A stretch of DNA of 64,000 nucleotides. Source: an uncultured Candidatus Saccharibacteria bacterium. GTDB lineage: Bacteria > Patescibacteriota > Minisyncoccia > Phycocordibacterales > UBA9973. The notes beneath the pieces are model-generated. The model did not search any database. It was not told where the DNA came from and worked only from the letters and a program-made list of their open reading frames with translations. Location of the stretch: assembly GCA_964505155.1 (NCBI GenBank), contig CAZDGL010000001.1:1286-65285 (forward strand), written 5' to 3'. Numbering within the stretch: position 1 is the first letter of the stretch; every line of letters starts with the position of its first letter. This document shows positions 10,594-32,402 of the stretch, in pieces. The position numbers were made by a program, and so were the translations under genes.

Positions 10594-10625
10594 TTGAAAA
10601 ATGGAGGAGCATTGTCTGCTCCTCC
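10594..10625 (-). terminator. rho-independent terminator (minus strand)
   Basis: GGAGGAGCA-gacaa-TGCTCCTCC followed by ATTTTTC, directly after the SPFH gene stop. Confidence 0.6.
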
Positions 10626-10642
10626 ATGTTTATAGTTTTATC

Positions 10643-12444: not shown

Positions 12445-12486
12445 AAATATTAAAAAGATAAATAGCTCTATAAGGAGCTATCAAAA

Positions 12487-15050: not shown

Positions 15051-15075
15051 TTGAGATCATCATAAATGAGGAGAA

Positions 15076-15151
15076 TGGTGCCCCTAGCAGGCTTCGAACC
15101 CACGACCTTCTACTTACAAGGTAGCTGCTCTACCAACTGAGCTATAGAGGC
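15076..15151 (-). tRNA. tRNA-Thr (anticodon UGU)
   Basis: Acceptor GCCTCTA/TAGGGGC, D-arm GCTC-AGTTGGTA-GAGC, anticodon loop CTTGTAA (27:43 G.A mismatch), T-loop TTCGAAG, CCA encoded. Confidence 0.7.
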
Positions 15152-15161
15152 ATTATTTGGT

Positions 15162-15425
15162 TTAAACGTATACCGTGATTGTCTTTGAAACAGGAAAGAC
15201 TTCCTTGACTTCAATTTCATCCGGTTCATGTTCGAAAGGTTGTTCGTCTTGATATTCCGTAGCACCCACCGAATAGGTAGTCTTATAGAATTTGCCTTCA
15301 TGTTCGAAAACAACTTCATGCTTGACAGACCACCGATCAGTATCGATAATCTCGTCTGAGATCAACTCAAGATCCACGTCACCCCAACAGACTAATTCCT
15401 GTAGATCATTCTTTTTGAATAACAT
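15162..15425 (-). CDS. hypothetical protein
   Basis: 87 aa ORF. Confidence 0.35.
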   Translation of the reverse strand: MLFKKNDLQELVCWGDVDLELISDEIIDTDRWSVKHEVVFEHEGKFYKTTYSVGATEYQDEQPFEHEPDEIEVKEVFPVSKTITVYV

Positions 15426-15450
15426 TCAATTACCTTTCATAATATGAAAA

Positions 15451-15526
15451 TGGAGGAAGCGGTGGGAATCGAACCCACTTAGCGACTGTTTTGCAGACAG
15501 CGACGTATCCAACCCGTCCCGCAACC
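15451..15526 (-). tRNA. tRNA-Cys (anticodon GCA), acceptor stem with two U.U mismatches
   Basis: Anticodon stem GCTGT/ACAGT, loop CTGCAAA, T-arm GTGGG-TTCGATT-CCCAC, discriminator U plus CCA; acceptor GGTTGCG/CGCTTCC pairs 5 of 7. Confidence 0.55.
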
Positions 15527-17505: not shown

Positions 17506-17973
17506 TTAAGTTTCGTTGGTCTGATGGTGGGTATACTTGAATGAACGATCCCATTTTGTATATGCTTGGGATAGAATGTAGTTCTCGTCCAGATCGTATT
17601 CGAAATACATCTTGTTGAGAATTCCTAGAACGTCTCCCAACTCAATTTCTAGGAGACGTCGATTTGTGGTCTGTCTTGGATCATCAGGATGATAGGATTC
17701 GTATCCGTGTCGCTTGATCTTCTGAGCAATCATAATTACTTCAGACAATTCTTCCACAAGCATATCGAGCCGCTCTGTTTCAGCAGGAGTCAATCCGTTG
17801 AAGTGGACTTGTGATTCAGCTTCCAAGGCTCGTTCTTTCCAATATTCTGCATCCGTGTTTTCTTTGAACGGATAAAATCTTCCAGCACCATCGGCAATCT
17901 TCACGCTAGCTACTGAAGCCGTGTTCCTAGAAGCCACTTCAGCAGCACCTCTCAATCCAGCATTATCCAACAT
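17506..17973 (-). CDS. MazG-like all-alpha NTP pyrophosphohydrolase (T4 dCTPase gp56-like?)
   Basis: EExxE-type helix LVEELSEVIMIAQKIKRHG and E...LGDVL motifs. Confidence 0.5.
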   Translation of the reverse strand: MLDNAGLRGAAEVASRNTASVASVKIADGAGRFYPFKENTDAEYWKERALEAESQVHFNGLTPAETERLDMLVEELSEVIMIAQKIKRHGYESYHPDDPRQTTNRRLLEIELGDVLGILNKMYFEYDLDENYILSQAYTKWDRSFKYTHHQTNET

Positions 17974-18947
17974 TATAATATTTCCAAACAGTGGTTGATT
18001 GAATCGTTCAAATTATACTTAGGTCTCCATCGCAGGATGGATTCAGCACATCGGGTATCCGGTATTCGAGTCTTCACGTCGTTCGGATATTCCTTGACGG
18101 TTTCAAACTCCAGATCCACACCACGGAAATCAATCAGACCCTTCAGGTATGCCAGATCCGCAATCGTCTGCGCGAGCCTGCGCATGGTGACTGCCTCGGT
18201 GGATCCAAGATTGTAAACCGTGTTGTAGGTCTCCACATCAAACGATAGATTAGCAATCGCTAATGAGGTATCTCGAATATCTGTGAAGCATCTAATCTGG
18301 AACCCATTTCCAATGATAGGAAGCTTCTTGTTCTTCAGGACTACGATCTGGTGGATATAATCAGCAAAGACGTGTGAACTACCGATTTCATACTCGGCAG
18401 TCTCATACGGTGTGATGATATTGAACGGTCTCCAGATTGTATACGGAAGCTGGTATTGCTCCCAGTATGCTTTGGATAGACGTTCACCCACATACTTCGA
18501 AAGACCATAATCCGTCTTGTGGACACGTGAGGTTTCGGTCATCCACTCTTCAGCAGTCTCCAGATTCTCATAGACCATGGAAGAAGAAATGTAAACTACT
18601 CTTTTGACGGTTTCGATGTTATAAGCAGACCGCAGGATGTTGCTGTGCAGCGTGATATCATTTCCGAGAATATCTGCAGGATGAGACGAAAATCCACCGA
18701 CTCCGAAAATCGTGGCAGCACCCTGAATCACATAATCAGGTTGGACTTCACGAAACAAAATGTCTACCACATTCGGATGGATCAAATCCAACTTATGAAA
18801 ATCATACTTGACATTTGCGATATTTCGACGTTGCTTATATCTGGAAAGATTGTCTACACCAACCACATCATGTCCATTGTTTACAAGATGTGGGATAACG
18901 GATTGCATGAGAGATCCTTCGGATCCCGTTACTAAAACTCTGCTCAT
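17973..18947 (-). CDS. NAD-dependent sugar epimerase/dehydratase (extended SDR)
   Basis: N-terminal VLVTGSEGSLM Rossmann motif and catalytic YGLSK (YxxxK). Confidence 0.7.
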   Translation of the reverse strand: MSRVLVTGSEGSLMQSVIPHLVNNGHDVVGVDNLSRYKQRRNIANVKYDFHKLDLIHPNVVDILFREVQPDYVIQGAATIFGVGGFSSHPADILGNDITLHSNILRSAYNIETVKRVVYISSSMVYENLETAEEWMTETSRVHKTDYGLSKYVGERLSKAYWEQYQLPYTIWRPFNIITPYETAEYEIGSSHVFADYIHQIVVLKNKKLPIIGNGFQIRCFTDIRDTSLAIANLSFDVETYNTVYNLGSTEAVTMRRLAQTIADLAYLKGLIDFRGVDLEFETVKEYPNDVKTRIPDTRCAESILRWRPKYNLNDSINHCLEIL

Positions 18948-19100
18948 GTGATTACTTCTTCCGAATAAAAGTGCTAATAATGCCTACTGCTAATATGAAT
19001 AGAAAAATCCAAAGAAATGGAAAGACCAACGGATAATGATGAGCCAACTGTTCACCAAATCTAGCACCCAAACATACTGTTGATAGGTTGCAGGGATCCA

Positions 19101-20492
19101 TCAAAGTATCTCAATTCCATTTAGACTGTTTGGTGTGAATTTTGAAGTGATATCCACTAGGATAACACCCTTCTTGAAGAATCGCTTCCACAACGATTTC
19201 TTATCAGCAAAAACCTTATGTGGAGTCATGACAATAATCATATCGTATTCACCGAAGTTCGGTAGCTTGGAATATTTAGCCACGTAAGGATCGTAGATAT
19301 CGTAGACGATTCCATTGCGCTTCAGAATCTTTGCCATTCTAAATGACAAGGAATTTCGGGTATCATCCGACTCTGGTTTAAATGCGGCACCAAGGATTAG
19401 AACCTTCTGTGGTCGAGGATAAACCTGAAGCTCATTCCACAGATAGTCCACGATGTTTTCATTAATCGTGAAGCTACCACGGATCAGTTCCGAATACGGA
19501 ATCTTACTCAGCAAGAAGTGGCCATCCTTATAGAGGCACGGACCAGCAGCAAATCCCGGCTTATCCATATTCATTCGAGGATAATCGAAATTTGCCAGAT
19601 TGATGATCTTGGTCGCATCGACACCATGCTCGCGACAAATGATATAGAATTCATTCGCAAGTGCGAAGTTCACATACCGATACATGTTGGTGATCAGCTT
19701 CGCTAGTTCGGCTTCTTCCCATGACACGAATCCATAACTGAATTCATCCTGAATAGATTGTTTGGGGAAAAGTCTTTGAACTTTAGCCAAAACATCAGAC
19801 TGGAATTGTCGTGAATAATCGATGGTCATGTCGTATCTCTTATTCGGTGCATCCGAATTCCACTCGTATCCGATGATTTGTGGAAGCTCCTTGAATTCAG
19901 TCAATCCATGTCCCTGTGATACTCGTTCAGGAGCAAAAAACATGAAGTAGTCGATACCATGGACATAACCATAATTAGCTAGCTTCTGGGAAATAGCTCT
20001 GGTGGTACCCGGAATAACCGTAGACCGAAGGACGAAGATGTGTCCCTTGATTTCTCCAATTGAATGGAGATATTCAAAGTAGTTGAAAATATCGTCCACT
20101 GACGGATTGCCGTTCTCATCAATTGGTGTACCGATCATAATGCAGATCATTCTAGCTCTGCGTACGGCTTCTGGATCCGTGGTGAATTCAACCATCCGAT
20201 GATAAAGCTTGGAGCTTAGAAGTGACTCGGCATCGTCCTCTAGATATGGAACGATGCCCATATTGAGCTTATCGACTACTTCCTGATTTTTATCGATGCC
20301 GATTACCTTACGGTAAGACTGAGCAATGGACAAACTGAACGGAAGTCCCACGTGGCCAGCGGCACCAATCACTGCCACGTAATCGTCTCTATCATCTTTT
20401 GTTTGAAGTGATACTCCACCAACATATCGTGAAGAGGTTTGTACTGCCATTTCCATTAATATCTTTCTTCGGTGTTCAGGAAGGTTTCCCAC
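19101..20492 (-). CDS. nucleotide-sugar dehydrogenase (UDP-glucose/GDP-mannose dehydrogenase family)
   Basis: VIGAAGHVGLP (GxGxxG) and catalytic-Cys motif GFAAGPCLYKD; 463 aa. Confidence 0.75.
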   Translation of the reverse strand: MGNLPEHRRKILMEMAVQTSSRYVGGVSLQTKDDRDDYVAVIGAAGHVGLPFSLSIAQSYRKVIGIDKNQEVVDKLNMGIVPYLEDDAESLLSSKLYHRMVEFTTDPEAVRRARMICIMIGTPIDENGNPSVDDIFNYFEYLHSIGEIKGHIFVLRSTVIPGTTRAISQKLANYGYVHGIDYFMFFAPERVSQGHGLTEFKELPQIIGYEWNSDAPNKRYDMTIDYSRQFQSDVLAKVQRLFPKQSIQDEFSYGFVSWEEAELAKLITNMYRYVNFALANEFYIICREHGVDATKIINLANFDYPRMNMDKPGFAAGPCLYKDGHFLLSKIPYSELIRGSFTINENIVDYLWNELQVYPRPQKVLILGAAFKPESDDTRNSLSFRMAKILKRNGIVYDIYDPYVAKYSKLPNFGEYDMIIVMTPHKVFADKKSLWKRFFKKGVILVDITSKFTPNSLNGIEIL

Positions 20493-20683
20493 GTCTGGAT
20501 ATCAGCTATAACATAGGCTTCTGGTGTTTGTTCTGCTTTGTCTTTATAATCTTCCAGATAATCCTGATAGAATTCAGGAGCCATCCCAACAGCATAATCA
20601 CGCTCGTTCTCACCCATGCGATCAGTCATTTCATTAATAAACCGACTTTTGAATTCCATCAGAGTCAACTTTTTGCGTTTCAT
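20456..20683 (-). CDS. hypothetical protein
   Basis: 75 aa ORF. Confidence 0.3.
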   Translation of the reverse strand: MKRKKLTLMEFKSRFINEMTDRMGENERDYAVGMAPEFYQDYLEDYKDKAEQTPEAYVIADIQTWETFLNTEERY

Positions 20684-21217
20684 TTAATTCACAAACTTTC
20701 TAACTTGCCAAGCCCAATCGGTGCAAATACCGTAGCAATCCAATTCTTTGGTTGCGTTGAGGTTGGCTTCCAAACTAATATCTGGATTCCAGTTTTCTGG
20801 AAGCACAGCAATCGAATTCTTATAGACTGGTTGACCGGGATAAGTCCAGATCTTTCCATCGGTCGTCATCACACCAGCGTCCTTATCATGAAAGAACAGA
20901 TATGGAACACATCGAAGATGGAGTAGGTGATTCAGGACCGTGAGATCCTTGCAATGGAAGTAAGTATACGGAGCAATATCGATCACATAGTCAAGAGTTA
21001 CTGGATAATAACATCCACCTTCATGTCCTATAACGAAATCGTGCTTTTCTCCTGCTGCCGAAGATTCAGTATCAATCGTCCATCCAGTAAATGCTAGAGT
21101 GTTGATATCTACCTCAACCATAAATCCAGCATTGATAGCTTGTTCGATAGCTTCCGGTGAGTTTTCGGTTTGGTCGTTTGGACCTTGCATAAGGCCACGG
21201 TGGGCAATGACGATCAT
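20684..21217 (-). CDS. glycerophosphodiester phosphodiesterase (GDPD)-like
   Basis: Internal start MIVIAHRG...ENSPEAIEQAINAGFMVEVDI (HRG...EN...E.D); AGGA SD upstream; the track ORF extends to 21328. Confidence 0.55.
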   Translation of the reverse strand: MIVIAHRGLMQGPNDQTENSPEAIEQAINAGFMVEVDINTLAFTGWTIDTESSAAGEKHDFVIGHEGGCYYPVTLDYVIDIAPYTYFHCKDLTVLNHLLHLRCVPYLFFHDKDAGVMTTDGKIWTYPGQPVYKNSIAVLPENWNPDISLEANLNATKELDCYGICTDWAWQVRKFVN

Positions 21218-21296
21218 TATAGGAGTCCTAGATACATTGATAGAAAGAATACGAACACCAAAAATGCTGAATAGATGGAAATAGCAATAACATACT

Positions 21297-22040
21297 TCAT
21301 TCAGACTTCCAGTCTTTGTACTGCCCATTTGGTGTGTGCTGAAGCTGTTTAGGAATGTTTACTTCCACATGCTCAGACCTAGATTCGATCAAATCCTTCA
21401 CGAAGATGTGAGGACAGAACCTATTATATTTAAGCGTCAATCGTGTCAATTCCTTGATATTAGACATGCTCCACGTCAAATCTTCGATCTTTCTTCGAGT
21501 TGACATGAAAAACATATCCCCGGTTCCCTGACCAGTATGATTGCGGTGAAAGAGAGTATAGAATTTCGTAGGATCCGCGTTTGCAATCACATCAACGATT
21601 TCTGGTCCGACTACCAGATCAGGACGCATTCGGATGACTAGATCATAATCTCGGGATATTCCACCATTTCGGTAAAAGTTGTTCATCCCTTCGTTCATGA
21701 GCCAGAATTGGGATAGTGTATTAACTGGACGGATTTCCTGACAATAAGGCTCGAAGATTTTGGCTTCAGCTATAAAACTCGGTTCATAGAGCTTGAAGCT
21801 CTGAACATCAATATGTTCTGCACCGTAAGTATTTTTAACAGCGTGCCAGTTTATCTTTGGACTTTCTGGATTGATACCCTTCTTTGTAGTATCAGCTTCA
21901 GGAGAAATCCAATATCCCTCATCATCCCATGTAGTTATATAGACCGAAGGTTGAAATGGTTCTAGGATATACTGGTAGGTGTTGATGAAAACCTGTTGCC
22001 AGCACCGCATATGACCAGTCAATACTAGAGCTATTTTCAT
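21297..22040 (-). CDS. putative glycosyltransferase-like protein (paralog of 24767..25492)
   Basis: MKIALVLTGHMR... versus ...KIALCLSGQPR...; family not assigned. Confidence 0.3.
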   Translation of the reverse strand: MKIALVLTGHMRCWQQVFINTYQYILEPFQPSVYITTWDDEGYWISPEADTTKKGINPESPKINWHAVKNTYGAEHIDVQSFKLYEPSFIAEAKIFEPYCQEIRPVNTLSQFWLMNEGMNNFYRNGGISRDYDLVIRMRPDLVVGPEIVDVIANADPTKFYTLFHRNHTGQGTGDMFFMSTRRKIEDLTWSMSNIKELTRLTLKYNRFCPHIFVKDLIESRSEHVEVNIPKQLQHTPNGQYKDWKSE

Positions 22041-22270
22041 TAGATTACTAAGCTCGTTTCACCTTGATGTTTAACCAAGTGCCATGATTTCAAACACTTG
22101 TGACAATACAACGTAGTTCTATAGTAATTCGGATCTTCTATATGATATTCACCTTGCTTATCATAATAATGAAACGAACCCATACACGTACTTGAAGTAC
22201 CTTGATCTTCAATAGTGCAATCATCCCGTTCACACTCAGAAGTTATTTTTATAACATGATGACTTCTCAT
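22040..22270 (-). CDS. Cys-rich small protein
   Basis: 76 aa, multiple CxxC-like spacings. Confidence 0.3.
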   Translation of the reverse strand: MRSHHVIKITSECERDDCTIEDQGTSSTCMGSFHYYDKQGEYHIEDPNYYRTTLYCHKCLKSWHLVKHQGETSLVI

Positions 22271-22442
22271 TCTTCCAAATCCTTCAATCGATATAGTTCT
22301 TCAGCGATTTGATCAGGAATACACGAATATCGGATCCACCGAAGCGGTCCAGTTTCCAGTTTACATTCTGGTCGATCACACATTCCATTGCCAGTCCGCT
22401 TCATGCAAAACTGGTCAAGCCAATCAATCATTTGATCAAAAT

Positions 22443-22883
22443 TTACCACCACCAATGGATCCAGATTTGTTCGTCGTCACCGATACCCTGCTCGCGCAGA
22501 TATTGCACGATAGCATCCACCATCAATGGACCTTCTTCCCACTTATGGGTTTCATCATTCCATCGATCAACTGTGGTACCTTCTTCTACAGTGTCTAGAA
22601 GATTGTTGATTGACGTCTTGAAAATATAGTTGTCGTTTCCAAGCTCACATAATCTCCAAATATCCTGAACTTGAGTTTCTACCTCAACCGGACAATCGGA
22701 CCACTGGGCATCCAGAATATACTGCTTTCGGACAGCTTTGCGATGATTAGGTTCTAGTGGCTTTGACTGCCAATCATCAAACTTGTGATTATATGAGGAT
22801 GTTCTTCCAGACCATTCAACCATTATGATTCTCCAAAAAGTACTTGAGATCTTCTGGGGTTCCAGTTCCCCACATACCCTCAA
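22443..22883 (-). CDS. hypothetical protein
   Basis: 146 aa ORF. Confidence 0.35.
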   Translation of the reverse strand: MRVCGELEPQKISSTFWRIIMVEWSGRTSSYNHKFDDWQSKPLEPNHRKAVRKQYILDAQWSDCPVEVETQVQDIWRLCELGNDNYIFKTSINNLLDTVEEGTTVDRWNDETHKWEEGPLMVDAIVQYLREQGIGDDEQIWIHWWW

Positions 22884-24186
22884 TCTGCTTCACTCTAAAT
22901 TTCTTGCCTTCGGCAATCAGGTAATTGATTGTCGGTGCCACATAGAATTCACCATTGGTGCGATCATCCGCAGTGATCATTTGTTCTACGGAACGACAAT
23001 AATCAGAGCCGCGAGACCAAAAGTAAACACCAACAGTAGCGTTATCAGATATCGGGTTCTTCTCGGCAATGCGCTCCACAAACCCATCGTCTGATAGCTT
23101 TGCAAAGCTCCATTTAGGATGAGTAGATTTGAAGGTGACAATTCCACCGTCGATGCCGTCTGCGGCAAACGCGTACATGACTTCATTTGAATTCCAATCC
23201 AGATACTGATCTGAATTAGCTATCACAAGAGGCTCGTCATTGTCAATGTATTTCCGAGCCAACATTGTGGTACATGCAGCACCTTCGGTTAGACCGTCAA
23301 CCTGAACTACCGTGCATCCCGGTTTGATGAGAGAAAGCATTTGACCGAGATTGTACTTCTCGTAATGCTCCTTCTGGACAATGAAAATATAATTTGCATC
23401 AATATTGAGGTTCTCGACCACCATTTGAATCATAGGCTTTCCCCGAACCTCGATCAGAGGTTTAGGAAAGGTGTAACCTGCAGCAGCAAAGCGCGAACCT
23501 GCACCTGCCATCGGAATGAGTACGTTCATCTTTTTATTAATCCATGGAATCTTAGGAGTGAATTGAGGTAGATCCGAAAAATTCTGTCGGACGAAATCTA
23601 GAGTGAATCCATCCACATTCTCAACCGGAACCAGTCTGGCACCAGAGGCTATTGCACCCTGACGACCGATATGTGAATCTTCTACGATAATGGTAGTCGA
23701 CGGAACCGCGTCCATTGCCATCATACACTGGAAATACATATCCACAGCAGGCTTAGGACGCTTGACATCCTCGTTGGAAATATAGTAATCGATCCACGGC
23801 ATAATTCCCATGAATAGAAGTGCCTGCTTCAACGTCGACCGAACAGAATTCGATGCCACGGCAATATGATAGCCTAACTGCTTAAGCTCCAGAATGATGT
23901 CGATGTTCTTCTGGTTCACATCAATCATGGCATACTCTAGAAGAGTATATTCCTGCTTTGCCTTCCAAATAGCATCATGCAATCCAGCAGGTAATCCCTT
24001 TTTATTAGAAAGCATTTGGAGCTTCTTAGTAGTCGGAAGTCCATCGTAAATAGACAAATGCTCCTCACGAGAAATTACCGCTGATGGGTAATAGTCATGA
24101 AGAGCATTATTGAGAGAATTGTAGTGTATCTCTCTGGAATCTAAAAGAACACCATCGAGATCTAGAATCACTAGTTTATTTGTCAT
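22816..24186 (-). CDS. bifunctional HAD-like hydrolase / sugar-phosphate nucleotidyltransferase
   Basis: N-terminal LVILDLDGVLLDS (HAD motif I) and IVEDSHIGRQGA (motif IV); C-terminal VLIPMAGAGSRF...PKPLIEV nucleotidyltransferase signature. Confidence 0.65.
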   Translation of the reverse strand: MTNKLVILDLDGVLLDSREIHYNSLNNALHDYYPSAVISREEHLSIYDGLPTTKKLQMLSNKKGLPAGLHDAIWKAKQEYTLLEYAMIDVNQKNIDIILELKQLGYHIAVASNSVRSTLKQALLFMGIMPWIDYYISNEDVKRPKPAVDMYFQCMMAMDAVPSTTIIVEDSHIGRQGAIASGARLVPVENVDGFTLDFVRQNFSDLPQFTPKIPWINKKMNVLIPMAGAGSRFAAAGYTFPKPLIEVRGKPMIQMVVENLNIDANYIFIVQKEHYEKYNLGQMLSLIKPGCTVVQVDGLTEGAACTTMLARKYIDNDEPLVIANSDQYLDWNSNEVMYAFAADGIDGGIVTFKSTHPKWSFAKLSDDGFVERIAEKNPISDNATVGVYFWSRGSDYCRSVEQMITADDRTNGEFYVAPTINYLIAEGKKFRVKQIEGMWGTGTPEDLKYFLENHNG

Positions 24187-24371
24187 TTCTTATAGTCTTT
24201 TCTACCCTGTATCTTGTGTGCTTCATCTTTTGTAGGGACTCGATCCCACACGGATCGTTTTAGATACCCTGCTCCATCACACTCGTCACATTCCTTGTCC
24301 CCATAGAAATCCATTCCAAAGGGACCATAGTCTGCAACCTTACCATATCCATCACAATTCGGGCATCTCAT
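24183..24371 (-). CDS. small DnaJ-type zinc-finger protein
   Basis: CPNCDGYGKV and CDECDGAGYL (CxxCxGxG repeats), 62 aa. Confidence 0.4.
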   Translation of the reverse strand: MRCPNCDGYGKVADYGPFGMDFYGDKECDECDGAGYLKRSVWDRVPTKDEAHKIQGRKDYKK

Positions 24372-24498
24372 TTATCATTCCACCACCAATAGGTTTTATA
24401 GATACTCATTATCAACCCAAAGGCAAATAATGCACCGATAGTACCACCTACAATAACACCTAAAAATATTTGAAAATATATGAATATCTCGGCAAGCA

Positions 24499-24801
24499 TT
24501 ATTTGCCGTAATTTCTCACGTATTCCTTGGCTTTCTCCTTGGAAACGTATTCACCATCCCAATCGAGATAGATCGTCACGGCATCGATCACATCAATCAG
24601 TTCACAAATTGCTTCTTTCTGCTCAGGAGTATCATGCTGAGCCATTGCGCTCATTGACACTGGAGCACTAAAATACTTCTCCAGAGCAGCTTTGCTAGCT
24701 TCAGTCGTGATATTCCACGACTTCAGAGTACCCCATTTCAGACCCAGACTTTCAGTTCCCATTTTCTCACCTATAGCTGTTCCATGTTGAAAAATCATCA
24801 C
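24499..24801 (-). CDS. hypothetical protein
   Basis: 100 aa ORF. Confidence 0.3.
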   Translation of the reverse strand: MMIFQHGTAIGEKMGTESLGLKWGTLKSWNITTEASKAALEKYFSAPVSMSAMAQHDTPEQKEAICELIDVIDAVTIYLDWDGEYVSKEKAKEYVRNYGK

Positions 24802-25492
24802 GAAGGATTGCGTGCCAGTTTCCGTTGTACTTACCCGGTGGAAATGGATTGCACATGTCCACGTACACCATATTCACACCTACCAGATTGGACATGTATA
24901 GCTGATTACTCAGCATGTCCTCACCGTTCATTGTCATTCCGAAGGAATAGAAATAGTCGATATTCGTAAACGTATTAGAGTAGCAATCCATGACATTCGG
25001 ACGACCGTACGCGAACATATCCGAACAAAAGTCGTGTGCTGGTGTCATGCGATCCTGAGGCACGTATAGCGTATGGTTCTCTATGGAGTCAAGTTCTAAT
25101 TCTCGATTCAAAGCATAATCAAACCGGGAACGAACGACTACATCATACTCCACACCCTTGCGCAGAGTATGCAGTTTTCGTAGCTGGTTGGCTTCAAATA
25201 CCGAATACCACATGGAATAGGTATTGAATGCCGGGAATTGGGGATTAGCTACCTTGGTATACTTTGAATTGATGTAGGTAGCATTGAGAGACGTATCTAG
25301 TTTAAGACCAGTTGGCTTATATAGAGTCTCAATATCATATAGGAAAGAATCTTTCCAAGTATGAATAAAGACGTCTACGTCATGTTTATCAAGCAAGTTC
25401 TTCTTGTGATATTCATAACCCGCAACATAGCTTCTAGGTTGTCCTGATAGACAGAGAGCTATCTTAAGTTCTTTTTTTGGTGAATCTGTCAA
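24767..25492 (-). CDS. putative glycosyltransferase-like protein (paralog of 21297..22040)
   Basis: Shared N-terminal KIALxLxGxxR block and similar length. Confidence 0.3.
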   Translation of the reverse strand: MTDSPKKELKIALCLSGQPRSYVAGYEYHKKNLLDKHDVDVFIHTWKDSFLYDIETLYKPTGLKLDTSLNATYINSKYTKVANPQFPAFNTYSMWYSVFEANQLRKLHTLRKGVEYDVVVRSRFDYALNRELELDSIENHTLYVPQDRMTPAHDFCSDMFAYGRPNVMDCYSNTFTNIDYFYSFGMTMNGEDMLSNQLYMSNLVGVNMVYVDMCNPFPPGKYNGNWHAILRDDFSTWNSYR

Positions 25493-25688
25493 GGTTTACC
25501 GTCCTATGTGATTTTCGTTCATACACTACTTCATCCTCAAGAATATCTAAATGCTCTTCTAGTATCCGCATCACTTCATCTATAGGATAGACGTCCTGAC
25601 ATCTATTTATAGCGTGTTCCAGAAAGATTAATGCTTGAGTCTGTTCGTAGTATTCTTTGGAATCTCGTTCAATCTGCTTTAGCGACAT
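25464..25688 (-). CDS. hypothetical protein
   Basis: 74 aa ORF. Confidence 0.3.
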   Translation of the reverse strand: MSLKQIERDSKEYYEQTQALIFLEHAINRCQDVYPIDEVMRILEEHLDILEDEVVYERKSHRTVNLDRFTKKRT

Positions 25689-26563
25689 TGTGGAATTACA
25701 CTTCTTTCAAACCAGTTTAGGAATCTCTTTCGAGTCGTCTCCACAATATTCTCATCATCTAGTAGACTTGTACCGCGTATCTTATCGTATAGATCGTCGC
25801 GAGTATCCAGATACTTGATAAATTCTACCACCTCATCGAATGAATCGTAATCATGGCAATTGATGAAGGCATCCGTATTGAAGTCAACCGCAACGGTAGG
25901 GGATCCCCAATAGATAGGTACCGACAATCCGATATAGGCATCCAGAATTTTTTCGGAAACATAACCCGGATAGCTTGAGTTTTCAAAACATATGGTGTAC
26001 TTGTAATTGGATAGGAACCGAATCTTCTGACGGACACCGTCCTCACCGCGAGGGAGAACCCAACCATTCATGTTGTTTAAGTGTGGTCCAGCAGAGTCTA
26101 CCGGACGATACGCGTTCAACTTATGAAAGATCTCGTTGCGTTCTTTGCAGTGTGGATTAGCTACCACGAACGCTGCAAAACGATCATTGTTTCCCCAGAT
26201 ATCTGGCTTACGGTAATCTACGGCATCGTCGTATGAATCGTCTACCAGAATTCCCATCTTATGATAGTGCCATATATTGAGAATATAGAGTGGCAGACGG
26301 AACATGTTCGGATGGATGTTGTGCTCAAACGACAACGCGAAATTACACTTGTAATCCCATGGACGCTGGTTCTCACCTGTATAAAATACCTTCACGCATT
26401 TATCATATTTTGCGTGCTGGTTCTTGTACCCGAAATTGGTATCACCAAAGAACAGGATGTCTGGTTCGATATCATCACGAACGACATCAAAGCGTCCACT
26501 CAACCATTCCATGAAGAATGTGGGAACCGGATCAAAGGTGTCTACGAATCCAATCTTAATCAT
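25679..26563 (-). CDS. GT10-family alpha-1,3-fucosyltransferase-like glycosyltransferase
   Basis: YKYTICFENSSYPGYVSEKILDAY matches the FucT signature (Y/F)x(L/I)xFENSxxxxYxTEK. Confidence 0.75.
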   Translation of the reverse strand: MIKIGFVDTFDPVPTFFMEWLSGRFDVVRDDIEPDILFFGDTNFGYKNQHAKYDKCVKVFYTGENQRPWDYKCNFALSFEHNIHPNMFRLPLYILNIWHYHKMGILVDDSYDDAVDYRKPDIWGNNDRFAAFVVANPHCKERNEIFHKLNAYRPVDSAGPHLNNMNGWVLPRGEDGVRQKIRFLSNYKYTICFENSSYPGYVSEKILDAYIGLSVPIYWGSPTVAVDFNTDAFINCHDYDSFDEVVEFIKYLDTRDDLYDKIRGTSLLDDENIVETTRKRFLNWFERSVIPQCR

Positions 26564-26814
26564 CCGTCAAAATCCATTTCTATCTTCAAACCATCACCAA
26601 TCTTGACAGTTCTTCTGCTCATTCCGACATTCAAAGCTCTAGAGATTTCACGTCCATTGAAACCCATCTCTTCCATAACCTTACGAACGGTTGAAGGACA
26701 AACAGGTTGCTTCATAAAATCTACAAACTGATAGAGTCTAGTGTGAGCTAATTCCTCACGTTCAGATATAGGCACAGATAATATCTCCCGGCACCTGACC
26801 GTCCAAAAACTCAA
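26560..26814 (-). CDS. small HTH DNA-binding protein
   Basis: GFNGREISRALNVGMSRRTV resembles sigma-70 region 4 / LuxR-type HTH. Confidence 0.4.
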   Translation of the reverse strand: MSFWTVRCREILSVPISEREELAHTRLYQFVDFMKQPVCPSTVRKVMEEMGFNGREISRALNVGMSRRTVKIGDGLKIEMDFDG

Positions 26815-27916
26815 ACTTATACTCTGGATTGATTTCGGTCAGAAGGCTCATCGCATCAGAATACTGGACATACGACCATTCAGCAGATCCGAATAGACGC
26901 TTGTCATCAATAATGATGGTATGATCGTTTCGCTTGGAAGCCTTGATTGCTTTCAGTTCGTCAAGCAACGGAGAACCACCGGAACGTCCACCTTTCAGAG
27001 GACCAGACGCATGAGCGTCCAACCAAAAAGTAGCACGGAGATTGTCGTTGTCAAGAGTATCAACGACTTCAGGGAACCAGTCTGCGGAATCGCGTTCTGT
27101 GATGATAATTCGCTTATCGTCTGAAAACTTCTGCTTCGCATTGGTCACCATTCCCTCATTGATATCACAGGACCATATCTCTCGGAACGGAAGTGGCTGC
27201 ATCAATTCAATGGTTTCACCGAGATAGGTTCCGGTCTCCACAAAGACATCATGCAATCCGTACTTTCGTACATCATCAGGATTTAGATGCGATCCATTCT
27301 TCTTAGGCTTCATTATGAAAGGAGTCAACGCTGGACCAGACTTTTCTACCGAATTGCTCTTCTTCCACCAGAATCCACCTGCACCAGTCACCACCATCGG
27401 ATCCGTGAACCGCATCTCACGACGAAACTGCTTTACCTCATCAATCCTACGATGATATGACTGTCCGGCAAAGATGCCTCCCACGCGACAAATCTCGAAG
27501 GCTTCGGAGATTGGTGTGTCCCCAGAAAATATAACAACATCAAATTTAATGTTTCCCAGATTCTCCACAGAATATGGGCAAATCACATGTTCCATGGACT
27601 TGACGTTATTGTGATACTGTGAATACCACTCGGACTTTGGATTATTATAATAGAATGAAACCCTCTCACCCAAGGCATCATGCAGATTTCGGAGCATTTC
27701 ACCCTTGTGATCCTCGATATAGATCGTGAGCTTATCACCCAGACGTCGAATTTCTGGAATCAAATCGACGGTAAGCAGCGTGAGATTGTTGACAAACTTG
27801 CGCTCCTTCAATTCGTCGTAGGATAGATCCATATTCATATAATTGACTGGACCTTCCACTACTGGAATATCCACCACAACTTCTTCCTCGTCATCATTCT
27901 TCAAATCAATGCTCAT
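26762..27916 (-). CDS. putative SAM-dependent methyltransferase (two Rossmann-like halves)
   Basis: VFVETGTYLGETIE...SCDIN (motif I/II-like) and ...FDVVIFSGD...ICRVGGIFAGQ. Confidence 0.4.
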   Translation of the reverse strand: MSIDLKNDDEEEVVVDIPVVEGPVNYMNMDLSYDELKERKFVNNLTLLTVDLIPEIRRLGDKLTIYIEDHKGEMLRNLHDALGERVSFYYNNPKSEWYSQYHNNVKSMEHVICPYSVENLGNIKFDVVIFSGDTPISEAFEICRVGGIFAGQSYHRRIDEVKQFRREMRFTDPMVVTGAGGFWWKKSNSVEKSGPALTPFIMKPKKNGSHLNPDDVRKYGLHDVFVETGTYLGETIELMQPLPFREIWSCDINEGMVTNAKQKFSDDKRIIITERDSADWFPEVVDTLDNDNLRATFWLDAHASGPLKGGRSGGSPLLDELKAIKASKRNDHTIIIDDKRLFGSAEWSYVQYSDAMSLLTEINPEYKFEFLDGQVPGDIICAYI

Positions 27917-28782
27917 CCGATTGCGTACCTTTCGTCAACTAATGCTTTCAATTCTGGATTTCTATCATACTGGTGGACAATATAGAATGGCTCACCGTAG
28001 ACGTTTCTAATTGTTCCATCGGAATCCATCTCAATTCCGTTATCGGTTCGAACCTTGGAGAAATCCTTGGACGGATCCATCATGGTTCCAATCTGTGCTG
28101 CCCACGAATGATCATGGTCAAATATCATGGCATTATGTGGATTCAGGGTACGAACCAGCACATTCAAAGCAGACTGATCCGGACCACCTCCACCGGGAAC
28201 AAACGCTGGACGACCCACGCACATTTGGTAGATCGCTAGACTCAAAGCCTTTATGCTCTTATGTGTTCCAGCTAGAACACCAGCATTGAGGATAGGATGA
28301 TCTAGCATATAATGCAATGTGTCATTTCCGAACGACAGCTTCATGTTATTATAAGACCACGGCTCATCCTTATAGGCTATTCCTTCTGAAGAAAAGATTA
28401 GGATATTTGATCCGTTATCATAAAAATGATCCAGATCAATTTCATTGATGAAAAAATCAGACGGATTTCTCTGAAAAATCACATCCCGAACATCGGTTGT
28501 GATAACGTAACGATATTCCAATTCATCGGAAGCTTTAAGAATTAGATGAAGATCTCTGAATCGATCGACGCAGATATTTTGGGAAGGAGAAAATGGAGCA
28601 GGATTTGGATAGTAGTATCGATCACCATTCTGAGTGCAGAAGTTCCACATCTCATCGGATGGTGTATAATCAAACAGTACGATAGAACCCTTATATCCAG
28701 TTGATTTTAGAGAGAACACCCAATTGTGAACGTGGTGTGGTTGATAGTTTTTGATAAACCCAATTACGAGGTCTTCTTCCAT
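27913..28782 (-). CDS. hypothetical protein (island member)
   Basis: 289 aa ORF, start overlapping the upstream stop. Confidence 0.3.
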   Translation of the reverse strand: MEEDLVIGFIKNYQPHHVHNWVFSLKSTGYKGSIVLFDYTPSDEMWNFCTQNGDRYYYPNPAPFSPSQNICVDRFRDLHLILKASDELEYRYVITTDVRDVIFQRNPSDFFINEIDLDHFYDNGSNILIFSSEGIAYKDEPWSYNNMKLSFGNDTLHYMLDHPILNAGVLAGTHKSIKALSLAIYQMCVGRPAFVPGGGGPDQSALNVLVRTLNPHNAMIFDHDHSWAAQIGTMMDPSKDFSKVRTDNGIEMDSDGTIRNVYGEPFYIVHQYDRNPELKALVDERYAIG

Positions 28783-29513
28783 GGCAATTCTCCATTATAA
28801 AAGTCAAGAGTTTTTTGATTGCCGTCCTCAAAAAACTTCTGGTTAACCGAACCCGGATTTCCGTCCAGACGATACCGAACAGTATACCCACACATAGTTA
28901 TCGGACTTAGTCCAGACCATTTTTGAACTAGCTGAAGAAATCTTCGATCTCCACCCCATCCTGAATTCCATAGATGTCCATATCGTTTAAGGAATTCATT
29001 CTTGAAAATAAAGCATGAGGTATCGACTAGATATCCGTTAAGCTCATTGAACATAATAGGCCAATTGCCTAGAGACTCGCAATCGTCGTCCAGAAGGTAT
29101 TCGTTTTTGGGAGATACGATTTTACGGAAAGAATGACCGAAATGGTCGTCTTGTTCTGTGATAGCTTCGACCATTGACCGAACATGATCTGGTTCGTAGA
29201 GATTGTCCTCATCCAGAAATAGAATGTAATCTTCTGGGACAATCTGGGACATTGCGGCATAGATCCGATGTCCATAATAACCGTTGGCACCTGTATTGAA
29301 TGGTAATTCAATAATGCTTACGTTGCGATAATCCGAACAGGTATCCCGAACGTTGACGTCTCGCTGGATACCATCAATCACCACATAATGAGTTAGCTTC
29401 CCCTTGTAATCCTGATTGAATACAGATTCAACAGCATCACAAAGTTTATCGGTGCCGATTGTAGGAGTGACGACACCGACTGTAGGAGGTTCTTTAACTA
29501 TAGAGTATTTCAT
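28764..29513 (-). CDS. GT2-family glycosyltransferase
   Basis: VVTPTIGTDKLCDAVESVFNQDY...YVVIDG and DxD-like ILFLDEDN. Confidence 0.7.
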   Translation of the reverse strand: MKYSIVKEPPTVGVVTPTIGTDKLCDAVESVFNQDYKGKLTHYVVIDGIQRDVNVRDTCSDYRNVSIIELPFNTGANGYYGHRIYAAMSQIVPEDYILFLDEDNLYEPDHVRSMVEAITEQDDHFGHSFRKIVSPKNEYLLDDDCESLGNWPIMFNELNGYLVDTSCFIFKNEFLKRYGHLWNSGWGGDRRFLQLVQKWSGLSPITMCGYTVRYRLDGNPGSVNQKFFEDGNQKTLDFYNGELPWKKTS

Positions 29514-29644
29514 ACACTCTCGCGCGCAACTCTATAGATATCACATCGGGTAATTCCGATGTCAGCTAATTCTCTATCGTTCAAGCTATGAAGCTCTCGG
29601 ATAGTCTGCTTGATCTTACGTCTCTTTTCTAGGTACTTGAACAT
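29510..29644 (-). CDS. DUF1127-family small protein (44 aa)
   Basis: MFKYLEKRRKIKQTIRELHSLNDRELADIGITRCDIYRVARESV carries the L..LSDRELADIG..R.DI core; AAAGAGGA SD; its stop overlaps the GT2 start (ATGA). Confidence 0.6.
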   Translation of the reverse strand: MFKYLEKRRKIKQTIRELHSLNDRELADIGITRCDIYRVARESV

Positions 29645-29654: not shown

Positions 29655-30035
29655 TTAATCTGGATCTCCATACGACAACGGAATGTGATCTTTTTCTGTG
29701 ATGTAAGCTTCCTGAACACCCTTGGACATTAGATGTCGAGCGAAGCTCTGAAGTGTGAGTGCTTTCTTTTTCAGATCGCTATACTTATAACCCGGATTCC
29801 AATAATCAAAAAAGTCATAGCCTGAAAAACTTCCACCATTTGCACGGATCCAACTTTCAGCTTCTTCTCTGGTTTTGATTTCTGGCTTATAAGTGAAAAT
29901 CCACCAAAACGTGGTACGTGGACCAATCAAACTATCAAGAACAGCGATACGCTTTTTTTCTGCCTGATCATCGAACCATTCAATTGCTTTGGTGGCACGA
30001 TTCAGAATGTCTCTGGTTTTTTGCAGTCCCTTCAT
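29655..30035 (-). CDS. hypothetical protein
   Basis: 126 aa ORF. Confidence 0.35.
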   Translation of the reverse strand: MKGLQKTRDILNRATKAIEWFDDQAEKKRIAVLDSLIGPRTTFWWIFTYKPEIKTREEAESWIRANGGSFSGYDFFDYWNPGYKYSDLKKKALTLQSFARHLMSKGVQEAYITEKDHIPLSYGDPD

Positions 30036-30478
30036 TCACACTCCCATATTGCACTGCACAATAGTATTTAGCACATCGTGCAGTCAAAAAGGTATGCTAA
30101 ATCAGCATACCACCTATTAGTTAAAACCAGTTATTGTTGAGGATGGTGACAGCGAGCTTCTCGATACCGGAAGCAATGAGAACCGCAGAGACAAAAAGTA
30201 CGGTTAGTGTAGCAGGTAAGAATGCATACCAGTTTCCATTAAACTGAGTCTTATTCGGCATCCACAGGTTCCTTCTTGTTGTTCTTCAGACGACGCTGAA
30301 TTTCATACTCAGCTGCAGCAGAAGAAAGGGATCCGGACTTGGAAATTTCCACCAACTCGTCGGTGGACTTGGACTTCATAGATTCAGTACGCTTTTTATT
30401 GATAGCCAATTCACTTCTCCATATTGAAAGGTAAACCGTAGGATTAGCCTACGTGGTTTCTGGTGTCAAGCTCTTTTT

Positions 30479-31342: not shown

Positions 31343-32074
31343 ATGCAGCAATATACACCATACACTTATTTATTAGGATGGTCAACTCCTAAAATATATT
31401 ATTATGGTGTTCGATACTCAAAAAAGAGTAAATGTTTATATTTATCAGGATGTCATCCTGATGATTTATGGAATACTTATTTTACTTCTTCTGAATATGT
31501 AAAAAATACGTATTTATTATACGGAAATCCTGATATAATTCAGATTAGAAAAACTTTCAATACTGCAAAAGAAGCTTTAAATTGGGAAAAGAAAGTTTTA
31601 ACTAGAATGAAATTACATCAGCGACCCGATTTTTTGAATAAATGTGCTGGTGGTAGTATTTTTAATGATGAAGATGTTAGAAGAAAAGTGTCGTTAGCTC
31701 TTAAAGGAAAACCATTTTCTCAAGAACATAAAGATAACATTCGAAAATCAAAACAAAACATTTCTCCTGAAATTCGTGCTAATATGAGCCGAGGACAAAG
31801 ATCCAAATCACCTCCAACAATAGAAACAAGAATAAAAAGATCTAAAAGTATGAAAAAACTTCATTGGTATAATAATGGCAATGAAAGTAAGAGATTACTC
31901 GTATGTCCTGAAGGATGGACCCAAGGTCGACTTACTTTCACTAAAACCACTACTTATATCAAATGTTCAAACTGTGAAAGAAATATATCTAAGTCAAATT
32001 TTCGGAAACATTCGACTTTTTGCCTACGGTATACTTTGACACCAGAAGATAGTCCTTCTTCTCGGAAGCCTTGA
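31343..32074 (+). CDS. GIY-YIG homing endonuclease (Seg-like) with NUMOD3 repeats
   Basis: ...KIYYYGVRYSKKS...; repeats SQEHKDNIRKSKQ / SPEIRANMSRGQRSKS; an exact TATAAATA lies 23 nt upstream (31313..31320). Confidence 0.65.
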   Translation: MQQYTPYTYLLGWSTPKIYYYGVRYSKKSKCLYLSGCHPDDLWNTYFTSSEYVKNTYLLYGNPDIIQIRKTFNTAKEALNWEKKVLTRMKLHQRPDFLNKCAGGSIFNDEDVRRKVSLALKGKPFSQEHKDNIRKSKQNISPEIRANMSRGQRSKSPPTIETRIKRSKSMKKLHWYNNGNESKRLLVCPEGWTQGRLTFTKTTTYIKCSNCERNISKSNFRKHSTFCLRYTLTPEDSPSSRKP

Positions 32075-32402
32075 TTACGGCCAACCCTGAAGCTGGTAGC
32101 TTATCTGCAATCTTCTTCTGATCAATCACCTGTAGCAATCCATAATTTTGGAGATTGTAGGCAATAGTATTTCTGCGCTTACGGTCTTCGTCCGTGAAAT
32201 CCGCGTTCTTTCCATCAAGAAGGAATAGCTCCTTGAAATGAACAATCGCATACTTTCCGCGCTTGTGTAGAATATGACAGGACTGATAAAGCGTCTTCTC
32301 CTTGGTCGACGCGATTCCCATTCTGGTCAATGTCTCTCGTATAATATGGAAGTTTTCTGGCTTATCTAATTCAACCCAAACCAAAGACTCTAAATCAATC
32401 AT
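31989..32402 (-). CDS. regA: translational repressor RegA
   Basis: ETLTRMGIA...LYQSCHIL...IVHFKE collinear with T4 RegA; the ATG overlaps the gp62 stop (TGATG). Confidence 0.85.
   Translation of the reverse strand: MIDLESLVWVELDKPENFHIIRETLTRMGIASTKEKTLYQSCHILHKRGKYAIVHFKELFLLDGKNADFTDEDRKRRNTIAYNLQNYGLLQVIDQKKIADKLPASGLAVIKASEKKDYLLVSKYTVGKKSNVSENLT

Follow-up and report, generated by a model that had tools for sequence, protein, structure and literature searches.

The stretch of DNA analyzed here, 64,000 nucleotides of contig CAZDGL010000001.1 (the window), is part of a T4-like phage genome which carries, on its minus strand at positions 17973-29644, a cluster of genes for making and transferring an activated sugar. 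The results suggest that this cluster is ancestral, modular and widespread, and that it represents one version of a module carried by aquatic T4-like phages downstream of regA. The conserved core of the module, as judged from gene order and homology, would consist of a fusion of a HAD-type phosphatase with a sugar-1-phosphate nucleotidyltransferase (HAD-NT), a protein of family DUF7796 and a short GDPD-like phosphodiesterase (mini-GDPD), together with a predicted glycosyltransferase of 289 amino acids (aa), X289, in phages. For the product of the cluster, the reading that we favor, with a probability of roughly 40%, is a glycan that is made in the cytoplasm and remodels the envelope of the host.

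Conservation of the module among phages

All cluster proteins were mapped onto the first 80 viral loci from IMG/VR, and the counts for viral loci given below refer to this set. HAD-NT had 522 relatives in IMG/VR at 60-65% identity, and it was 56-60% identical in the cultured Synechococcus myoviruses B3/B23, S-CAM9, S-8S55 and S-PRM1 and in DSL-LC03; no homologue was present in HTVC008M, Mosig or Melnitz. The order GT2 (glycosyltransferase family 2) - X289 - ... - HAD-NT - DUF7796 - mini-GDPD recurred in dozens of the 80 loci, and the module was often found beside the genes for gp44, gp62 and RegA. A GT2 homologue was located upstream of HAD-NT in 25 loci, X289 was present in 45, and a homologue of D77a, the DUF7796-like protein encoded next to mini-GDPD in the window, was located between HAD-NT and mini-GDPD in 41. 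The minimal form of the module was HAD-NT with mini-GDPD, and these two genes were adjacent in 66 loci.

Nearly the whole cluster, including a fucosyltransferase of family GT10 and the dehydrogenase-SDR (short-chain dehydrogenase/reductase) pair described below, was shared by two loci, L066 (on a 169-kb contig) and L001, at 30-65% protein identity, with other glycosyltransferase-sized genes interspersed; L066 also has a homologue of the methyltransferase. The close relative L243 (75-90% identical; Logan assemblies of SRR22000166, SRR22000222 and SRR22000240) keeps the same order at 64-90% identity and lacks seven of the small open reading frames (ORFs) of the window. Among cultured phages, S-CAM9 (L082) and B23 (L081) have annotated sugar clusters around HAD-NT, with mini-GDPD and DUF7796-like neighbors. 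In the record of S-CAM9 (NC_031922.1), the mini-GDPD homologue found by tblastn at 14658-15113 overlaps gp065 and gp064 and has no gene call of its own, so the deposited annotation may have missed this gene. A megablast search of the cluster DNA against the INPHARED phages gave no match, and no paper on the HAD-NT cassette was found in the literature.

Occurrence of the core in bacterial polysaccharide loci

The cellular context of the core is its only direct functional link, and it points to an exported surface polysaccharide. A scan of one genome per prokaryotic species, from which 80 loci were compared, gave HAD-NT homologues of 43-57% identity; they came from complete Pelagibacter and Methylophilaceae (OM43) chromosomes, from assemblies of SAR86 and from further genomes that include a Legionella draft. 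The mini-GDPD gene was adjacent to HAD-NT in 62 of these 80 bacterial loci, and X289 was found in none of them. In the OM43 strain LSUCC0401 (L166), the genes follow the order SIS - rmlB - rmlD - rmlA - rmlC - GT2 - HAD-NT - mini-GDPD - SDR - Wzx-like - GT2 and continue with two polytopic membrane proteins, giving three polytopic proteins in all, and by its gene content this is a classical exported-polysaccharide locus. In several SAR11 genomes, HAD-NT and mini-GDPD are placed between recJ and an integrase gene, following the gene for a 704-aa GT4/GT1 protein. Cassette-bearing loci also include L198 and L217 from Pelagibacter and L185-L189 from SAR86. Of the complete chromosomes that were recovered, that of OM43 came closest to the window, at 55-56% identity, which may hint at the host range.

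Enzymes for nucleotide-sugar synthesis

HAD-NT (22816-24186, minus strand like all genes of the cluster; 456 aa) combines an N-terminal HAD domain of subfamily IA, similar to beta-phosphoglucomutase (beta-PGM) and sugar phosphatases (HAD_2, E = 2.5e-23), with a sugar-1-phosphate nucleotidyltransferase (rmlA_long, E = 1e-18; PDB 4evw, E = 6e-18). The nucleotidyltransferase half carries the canonical GxGxR...PK signature, with RmlA-long, archaeal GlmU and PDB 4evw as best matches. Routes through CDP-glycerol or phosphocholine found no support, because these best matches are sugar-1-phosphate enzymes, and neither did a heptose pathway, since the cluster has no SIS, kinase or GmhB gene. In the HAD half, D9, D11, S17, H21, S112, K145, E169 and D170 are invariant in the alignment, and every catalytic motif of beta-PGM, including the DxD motif, is kept along with its hinge serine and histidine. 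The HAD profile matched beta-PGM of L. lactis at E = 3e-17, and the nearest solved relatives were beta-phosphoglucomutase and sugar-phosphate phosphatases, while the TIGR01990 score was 48 bits against a cutoff of 189. At the positions of the distal-phosphate site of beta-PGM (R49, K117 and N118), HAD-NT appears, by eye alignment with the L. lactis sequence, to have T52, I/V115 and R116. The HAD half might act as a mutase that feeds the transferase, as a phosphatase of sugar bisphosphates, or as a pyrophosphatase, which would pull the reaction forward.

The nucleoside diphosphate (NDP)-sugar 6-dehydrogenase (19101-20492) belongs to the UDP-glucose/GDP-mannose dehydrogenase family; it scored 243 bits with TIGR03026 against a cutoff of 190 and carries all three UDPG_MGDP_dh domains. 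The corresponding gene of the relative encodes 439 aa and aligns from residue 32, and translation probably begins about 25-30 codons downstream of the longest-ORF start. An extended SDR (17973-18947; PF01370, E = 2e-38) is encoded by the last gene of the cluster to be conserved; it is 85% identical in L245 and appears to be of the epimerase type, with the motifs SSSMVY and YGLSK and, by eye, no TDE dehydratase motif; no NCBIfam equivalog was reached by this protein. Together, the dehydrogenase and the epimerase-type SDR may produce an NDP-uronic acid and its epimer. A preliminary description of this stretch, made from the DNA letters and ORF translations, had named a bifunctional HAD phosphatase/sugar-1-phosphate nucleotidyltransferase, a UDP-sugar dehydrogenase and an SDR epimerase/dehydratase, and had proposed that together they can make an activated sugar; the profile matches bear out each of these calls.

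Glycosyltransferases, DUF7796 proteins and methyltransferase

The cluster encodes at least three credible predicted glycosyltransferases, of the GT2, GT6/8-like GT-A and GT10 types, in agreement with the capacity for sugar transfer proposed in the preliminary description. Profile searches had been named beforehand as the check on the glycosyl- and nucleotidyltransferase calls, and they confirmed GT2, GT10 and the nucleotidyltransferase. The GT2 protein (28764-29513; 249 aa) matched PF00535 at E = 3e-10 and is soluble, having no transmembrane segment. The GT10 protein (25679-26563; 294 aa), of the alpha-1,3/4-fucosyltransferase family, exceeded the gathering score of two domains, FucT_N (E = 3e-15) and Glyco_transf_10 (E = 9e-18), and has the fucosyltransferase motif FENS...Y.[TS]EK as CFENSSYPGYVSEK. 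A GT10 homologue is found in S-SKS1, and a pattern search of IMG/VR returned no close relatives.

X289 (27913-28782) carries an invariant TTDVxDVxFQ motif of the DxD type and is predicted to have a GT-A fold. By sequence only, no match was found to protein families or to the PDB. The structural model (predicted local distance difference test score, pLDDT, 85.7) gave as top Foldseek matches the GT6 alpha-1,3-galactosyltransferase and ABO transferases, the GT8 glycogenin and the glycosyltransferase domain of LH3, at E = 1e-9, and giant-virus glycosyltransferases were among the structural neighbors. The model thus supports X289 as a GT-A-fold glycosyltransferase of an unnamed family, closest to GT6/GT8. 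Its homologues numbered 1358, all hypothetical and all on metagenomic phage-sized contigs of up to about 152 kb, with a mean column identity of 68% (alignment A3), and the deposited phage records yielded a single distant match at 23% identity.

Two proteins of the cluster had been described as paralogous and glycosyltransferase-like. The paralogy holds, at 24% identity and E = 9e-6, and the two, members of family DUF7796, are candidate glycosyltransferases. D77b (24767-25492; 241 aa) matched PF25072 at E = 4e-5 and is 90% identical in L243, and D77a (21297-22040; 247 aa) is encoded immediately upstream of the mini-GDPD gene. DUF7796 was matched by 17 of the 33 members of the D77a/D77b family; a sequence-only search of the PDB gave no match for these proteins, and the searchable literature does not mention DUF7796.

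The 384-aa protein encoded at 26762-27916 is predicted to be an O-methyltransferase, with VETGTYLGET in its C-terminal domain. It had no direct Pfam match (Methyltransf_12, E = 0.14) and none in a sequence-only PDB search, and the earlier call of a two-domain methyltransferase is partly upheld through a homologue (P0135), 42% identical over residues 125-383, which matched Methyltransf_24 at E = 7e-14 and is named O-methyltransferase YrrM. By this homology the protein is probably an S-adenosylmethionine-dependent O-methyltransferase, and its N-terminal domain may be a degenerate Methyltransf_24.

Outside the cluster, a second GT-A-like gene stands by itself at 37512-38324 on the minus strand, with a DxD motif in MFIDSDIRF and a weak Anp1/GT62 match (E = 1e-5). 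It adjoins the region of a putative sliding-clamp gene and has a late-type promoter motif of its own.

The mini-GDPD family

The mini-GDPD gene (20684-21217) encodes 177 aa, in comparison to about 150 aa in most relatives. Among 27 sequences, the residues H7 R8, E19 N20, E36 D38 and H66 of the motif HR..EN..ExD..HD were invariant and D67 was kept in at least 90%. The family profile reached GDPDs in the PDB at E = 1e-3, and GDPDs were the top 22 Foldseek matches of the model (pLDDT 87.2), the match covering part of the barrel (TM-score 0.58 by query and 0.40 by target). No Pfam match was found up to E = 10, and PF03009 was matched by only one of the 27 relatives, at E = 0.1. A full GDPD is a (beta/alpha)8 barrel of about 230-250 aa, which the family at about 150 aa does not reach in size or in profile; because the motif is present while the family profile and the full barrel are not, we keep the label "GDPD-like", under which the protein had already been described as a phosphodiesterase.

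An exhaustive profile search at E <= 1e-10 returned 2229 cluster representatives of this family, mostly stand-alone proteins of about 150 aa. Among 15 longer proteins inspected, five combined mini-GDPD with a DUF7796-like domain, which came first in some and second in others (profile E = 1e-28 to 2.5e-14), and three were fusions to a domain with two HxT/S motifs which is, at the motif level, reminiscent of 2H cyclic phosphodiesterases; the others were fusions to Methyltransf_24-like domains or, by eye, to GDSL-like or GT-like domains. Because of the domain fusions and of the fixed adjacency in which DUF7796 is followed by mini-GDPD, the two families appear to be tied into one glycan-tailoring pathway involving a phosphodiester. 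The range of fusions is itself suggestive of a shared, uncharacterized phosphodiester chemistry in glycan tailoring.

Gene organization and promoter

The region 17973-29644 comprises 21 contiguous head-to-tail minus-strand ORFs, which agrees with the earlier count of more than 20 genes with overlapping starts and stops. With longest-ORF starts, nearly all junctions overlap or abut (gaps of -68 to +4 nucleotides, nt), the overlaps being partly inflated by over-long start calls. The cluster had also been termed an island, which is appropriate for a functional cluster but not in terms of composition, as its GC content of 0.41-0.45 equals that of the flanks and no anomaly of GC or skew was seen. 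A recent horizontal insertion was ruled out by this flank-like composition together with a gene order that is kept in relatives of only 30-60% identity. None of the cluster enzymes has a transmembrane segment, and hydrophobicity is confined to two mini-ORFs (43 and 50 aa) that are not conserved.

The first conserved gene of the unit (29510-29644) encodes a 44-aa DUF1127 (YjiS-like) protein, as had been noted before (PF06568, E = 6e-12), which is 95% identical in L243. Further small ORFs are interspersed among the enzyme genes. Those of 74 aa (25464-25688) and 100 aa (24499-24801) have no Pfam match and are 85% and 84% identical in L243, respectively, and three ORFs of 146, 62 and 76 aa at 22040-22883 have no family matches, two of them showing 38-48% identity in L243. 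The DnaJ-type zinc-finger mini-protein of the preliminary description (24183-24371; 62 aa), with two CxxCxGxG repeats and 70% identity in L243 over the motif region, is sustained at the motif level but remains below the gathering score (PF00684, E = 2e-4). The supposed HTH protein (26560-26814; 84 aa) did not hold up: it reached Xre-like-HTH only at E = 0.11, and the ORF was ruled out as a component of the system by its absence from the closest relative. Because the close relative lacks seven of the small ORFs while the order of the enzymes is kept, the small ORFs, including the "HTH" ORF, are best seen as filler of lineage-specific turnover and the enzyme genes as the conserved content. A 126-aa ORF without Pfam match (29655-30035) is absent from L243, where the promoter directly precedes the DUF1127 gene, and it would be a lineage-specific insertion between the two.

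At the head of the transcription unit (30058-30111, minus strand), a terminator-like hairpin with a T-run (30111-30091) is followed by CTAAATA at 30071-30065, a motif that resembles the T4 late promoter and is located 36 nt upstream of the first ORF. The window has 26 minus-strand copies of [AC]TAAATA, of which 12 are located 20-60 nt upstream of ORF starts, positions which make up 5% of the sequence (binomial P = 1e-9); of the copies of permuted heptamers of equal composition, 10.6% are in such positions. The positioned copies, 24-56 nt upstream, are at 62598, 60301, 58076, 53426, 50822, 43905, 40096, 38362, 34389, 30071, 10117 and 4797 on the minus strand. They precede the scaffold gene, a 482-aa fiber-like gene, two other genes of the structural region, four endonuclease-like genes and the second GT-like gene at 38324, and no replication gene of the window has the motif in position. 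The 24-nt element GCTAAATACTATTGTGCAGTGCAA around the motif is identical in L243, with the DUF1127 gene following directly, and in L066 the motif is found 62 nt before the first cluster gene. Taken together, [AC]TAAATA is likely the late promoter of the phage. A copy of the motif is also found before the S-CAM9 gene for transaldolase, which is auxiliary and not structural, and the motif would thus indicate late-type transcription rather than a virion function. The exact form TATAAATA was not enriched in the window (4 copies in comparison to 2.8 expected), and an early promoter was rejected as well, as sigma-70-type promoters were counted at chance level (57 in comparison to 53 expected) and the TTGACT-N18-TATTGT spacing at the head of the cluster is not kept in the relative.

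Possible targets of the glycan

From the enzyme families, the synteny and the phage and bacterial distribution observed above, we infer an order of reactions, a set of sugars and an acceptor as follows. A phosphorylated sugar would be turned into an NDP-sugar by HAD-NT, with the HAD half acting as mutase or sugar-bisphosphate phosphatase; oxidation by the dehydrogenase would give an NDP-uronic acid, which the epimerase-type SDR would then epimerize. An oligosaccharide would then be assembled by the GT2, the GT6/8-like GT-A and the GT10 enzymes, the last using GDP-fucose of the host, and probably by both DUF7796 proteins, with tailoring by the methyltransferase and the mini-GDPD phosphodiesterase. 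The glycan would be built on lipid-linked envelope-glycan intermediates of the host and exported by host machinery, so that the surface of the infected cell, of the lipopolysaccharide (LPS) O-chain or capsule type, is altered. A product for the host envelope is favored because the phage cluster is without an initiating transferase, flippase, polymerase or ligase and because the cellular homologues of the core are in surface-polysaccharide loci. LPS and cell-wall gene clusters are known in cyano- and pelagimyophages, for which host-surface modification has been proposed (PMC7029224; PMC12801897).

Several points weigh against a product for the host envelope. The cluster encodes no membrane component, and late timing, as implied by the promoter-like motif, would be unexpected for superinfection exclusion. 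No equivalog model reached its cutoff for a sugar-specific identity, and the sugars are not fixed by the profiles. Envelope remodeling by such phages is itself a proposal from genes. The conservation of X289, found only on metagenomic contigs and in none of the 80 bacterial loci, and the unusually high conservation of HAD-NT would be better suited to a conserved, possibly phage-made acceptor, which the missing membrane component and the late-type promoter would fit as well. Such an acceptor is the basis of the next explanation in rank, less likely than the host envelope, namely that the enzymes act in the cytoplasm at a late stage of infection and modify a virion protein, such as a capsid decoration or a tail fiber. 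The genes make up a self-contained set whose enzymes are all soluble; X289, conserved at 68% and with its single 23% match among deposited phage records, has among its nearest folds protein-modifying GT-A enzymes (glycogenin and the LH3 collagen glucosyltransferase) and giant-virus glycosyltransferases; the CTAAATA motif that heads the unit, in L243 and L066 as well, is the one before the scaffold and 482-aa fiber-like genes; and HAD-NT is 60-65% identical between phages, in comparison to at most 55% for the clamp loader and 42% for gp43. Glycosylated virions have precedents in mycobacteriophages, and in chloroviruses and mimiviruses with virus-encoded nucleotide-sugar pathways and methyltransferases. 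However, no T4-like virion is known to be glycosylated, the cluster is in a replication and hyperplastic region away from the structural genes, the motif is not specific to virion genes given its copy before the S-CAM9 transaldolase gene, and the cellular context of the core cassette is exported polysaccharide. A bolder form of the same idea, on which we would bet at most one time in a few, is that the core and X289 make up an undescribed pathway which adds a sugar or a phosphodiester-linked substituent outside the known O-antigen routes, late and on a phage-made acceptor; such a pathway would be the first system for virion glycosylation in T4-like phages, with a wide distribution in aquatic viromes and a donor cassette common to SAR11, SAR86 and OM43.

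The two further explanations rank well below the host envelope and the virion. HAD-NT, DUF7796 and mini-GDPD might make or recycle a small phosphodiester metabolite or a nucleotide-sugar pool, with the glycosyltransferases as accessories. This would account for the many phage loci that have only HAD-NT and mini-GDPD with no glycosyltransferase near, for the mini-GDPD fusions to domains with two HxT/S motifs, reminiscent of 2H cyclic phosphodiesterases, and for a HAD half whose nearest solved relatives are beta-phosphoglucomutase and sugar-phosphate phosphatases. A soluble product is nevertheless improbable, as the pair is embedded here among at least three glycosyltransferases, is found in bacteria in clusters containing glycosyltransferases or Wzx, and includes a mini-GDPD that is elsewhere also fused to methyltransferase-like and (by eye) GT-like domains typical of glycan tailoring. 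The preliminary description had left phage DNA, a virion protein and host polysaccharide side by side as targets; all three are still candidates, but the evidence gathered here puts DNA last, as a long shot. In that explanation the glycosyltransferases would decorate a hydroxylated base (5-hydroxymethylcytosine, 5-hydroxycytosine or 5-hydroxymethyluracil) as in the T-even, RB69 and DLP3 phages. The DNA glucosyltransferase genes of T4 are in the same replication-gene neighborhood, the window covers only 64 kb of a genome of about 151 kb, and known DNA-arabosylation clusters also pair a HAD phosphatase with a nucleotidyltransferase (PMC13326640). Against this, the six-frame translation of the window, outside which about 87 kb of the genome lie, has no ThyA/ThyX active-site motif and only two P-loops, those of gp44 and gp46, with no deoxynucleoside monophosphate (dNMP) kinase apparent, and no match to the ThyA/ThyX family was found among the window ORFs scanned against Pfam. 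The ORF at 17506-17973, which had been called a MazG-like dCTPase, had no match in Pfam or NCBIfam and reached the PDB only at E = 0.42; it is absent beside the cluster in the closest relative, so the call was dropped and the ORF ruled out as a component of the system. The DNA glycosyltransferases of the T-even, RB69 and DLP3 systems are GT-B enzymes (PMC13326640), whereas the transferases assigned here are of the GT-A fold, GT2 and GT10, and the GT-B type of DNA transferase was assigned to none of them. A set of five transferase-like genes with a uronic-acid branch, a methyltransferase and a phosphodiesterase is also larger than any known DNA adduct calls for, two N6/N4 DNA methyltransferases are encoded by the phage, and the core cassette is found in bacterial polysaccharide loci.

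In general, clusters of glycan genes belong to the auxiliary gene sets met most often in T4-like phages of marine and fresh waters, and the targets named for them are proposals. The comparison made here yields a minimal core that cultured Synechococcus phages and the most abundant bacteria of the plankton carry as well, and that can hence be tested by biochemistry. If the host envelope is the target, the cluster bears on receptor masking and on competition between phages in the ocean; if it is the virion, phage virion glycosylation would extend beyond actinobacteriophages. In either case, the families of mini-GDPD (about 2200 sequence clusters) and X289 (about 1350 proteins) would gain a functional context.

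Genomic setting and neighboring genes

The T4-like context, also proposed in the preliminary description, was confirmed by PHROG profiles for DNA polymerase gp43 (1084-3636), the clamp loader gp44 (34417-35352), gp46/gp47, a helicase, the major capsid protein (gp23), the scaffold (gp22) and the portal (gp20); gp62 (32402-32806) and RegA (31989-32405) carry Pfam labels taken over from the close relative. The best database relatives of gp43 were cyanomyoviruses at only about 42% identity, the major capsid protein shared about 63% identity with its counterparts in Methylophilales phage Melnitz, Pelagibacter phages and S-SKS1, and the best identity of the clamp loader in IMG/VR was at most 55%; given these low identities, the phage lineage is poorly sampled.

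The sugar cluster is inside a plastic region of about 28 kb between regA and gp43, two genes which are adjacent in T4. The region also contains a dUTPase/Dcd-like gene, ten tRNA genes and several homing-endonuclease-like genes. The plastic regions at 4285-15526 and 39356-40190, the latter with two of the genes, have 12 tRNA genes in total, for Pro, Ser (two), Thr (two), Val (two), Ala, His, Cys and Gly (two). The many homing-endonuclease-like genes (NUMOD3, SegE-type GIY-YIG, and HNH-like by motif) include those at 31343-32074 (plus strand), 12487-13131 (plus strand), 33777-34349, 9445-10080, 39404-40060, 43397-43867, 50233-50784 and 54678-55298, and one such plus-strand ORF is found in a low-GC patch (GC 0.33) between the dUTPase gene and regA. 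On the minus strand of the regA-gp43 region there are also an R2K-clade ATP-grasp protein (13088-13936), a calcineurin-like phosphoesterase (11725-12444) and a PHROG-200 "lipoprotein" (10643-11533), and just past gp43 an ORF at 517-906 (minus strand) has, by eye, the phosphoribosyltransferase-type motif LLVDDVLTTGYS.

Directly after the SDR gene, the segment 16472-17495 (minus strand) encodes a MotA/TolQ/ExbB-like protein with three transmembrane segments (E = 2.5e-4, below the gathering score) and a 184-aa protein with a single one. The two are kept in the same position in the close relative at 81-83% identity, and they may be a Tol/Exb-like membrane pair linked to the sugar cluster. The protein encoded at 36677-37507 (minus strand) has a dGTP_diPhyd_N domain (E = 9e-22), the N-terminal domain of dATP/dGTP diphosphohydrolases, with no solved relative in a sequence-only PDB search; it could bear on nucleotide-pool editing or purine modification. 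The two N6/N4 DNA methyltransferase genes (40928-41701 and 43946-44692, minus strand) flank gp46, in roughly the neighborhood in which T4 carries a DNA glucosyltransferase gene.

Comparison with known systems

Sugar clusters in marine T4-like phages were already known; what the present analysis adds is a defined core with a conserved place downstream of regA, a direct link to SAR11, SAR86 and OM43 polysaccharide loci and, probably, a late promoter. Like the Gtr (GtrA/GtrB/GtrC) and Oac seroconversion genes of temperate phages, the cluster may represent phage genes altering the O-antigen of the host, but it has no GtrA-like flippase and no GT-C membrane transferase, its GT2 is without the C-terminal transmembrane helices of GtrB, and the phage is a lytic T4-like one rather than temperate. 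With the virion glycosylation of chlorovirus PBCV-1, mimivirus and mycobacteriophages it has in common soluble glycosyltransferases, a viral nucleotide-sugar pathway and a methyltransferase, which are known here from genes alone. The glycosylation genes of mycobacteriophages adjoin structural genes, unlike the cluster in the window.

The DNA glycosylation systems of T-even, RB69 and DLP3 phages (PMC13326640) are similar in that a T4-like phage has its own NDP-sugar supply, through a phosphatase and a nucleotidyltransferase, along with glycosyltransferases. They differ in the folds of the transferases and in having a ThyA-family hydroxylase, a dCTPase and a dNMP kinase, none of which was seen in the 64-kb window, and the HAD domain is here of the IA beta-PGM-like type and fused N-terminally, in comparison to a stand-alone GmhB-like enzyme with a nucleotidyltransferase-kinase partner. 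The bacterial Wzx/Wzy O-antigen and capsule clusters, such as that of LSUCC0401, share HAD-NT with mini-GDPD, an SDR epimerase and a GT2, while Wzx, Wzy-like proteins, initiating transferases and any other membrane proteins are missing from the phage cluster. The glycosyltransferase-rich hypervariable regions of pelagimyophages likewise have O-chain-type genes, a UDP-glucose dehydrogenase and glycosyltransferases, although there these genes are mostly in the tail-fiber "host recognition cluster" (PMC7029224) rather than between regA and gp43.

The LPS/cell-wall clusters of the cyanomyoviruses S-CAM9, B3/B23, S-SCSM2R, P-SSM2 and S-SM2 are also co-directional clusters in a plastic region of a T4-like genome, and they combine epimerases of nucleotide sugars and a nucleotidyltransferase with several glycosyltransferases, GT2, GT10 and GT11 among them. 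The likeness is one of genes, the function of the clusters in those phages being itself a proposal. The host lineage in the present case may well be a different one, with gp43 at 42% identity and a capsid protein nearest to those of Methylophilales and Pelagibacter phages, and the version in the window adds the dehydrogenase-SDR pair, the methyltransferase and X289. By context, gene content and homologues, the cluster in the window can be placed among the glycan ("LPS-type") auxiliary clusters of aquatic T4-like phages.

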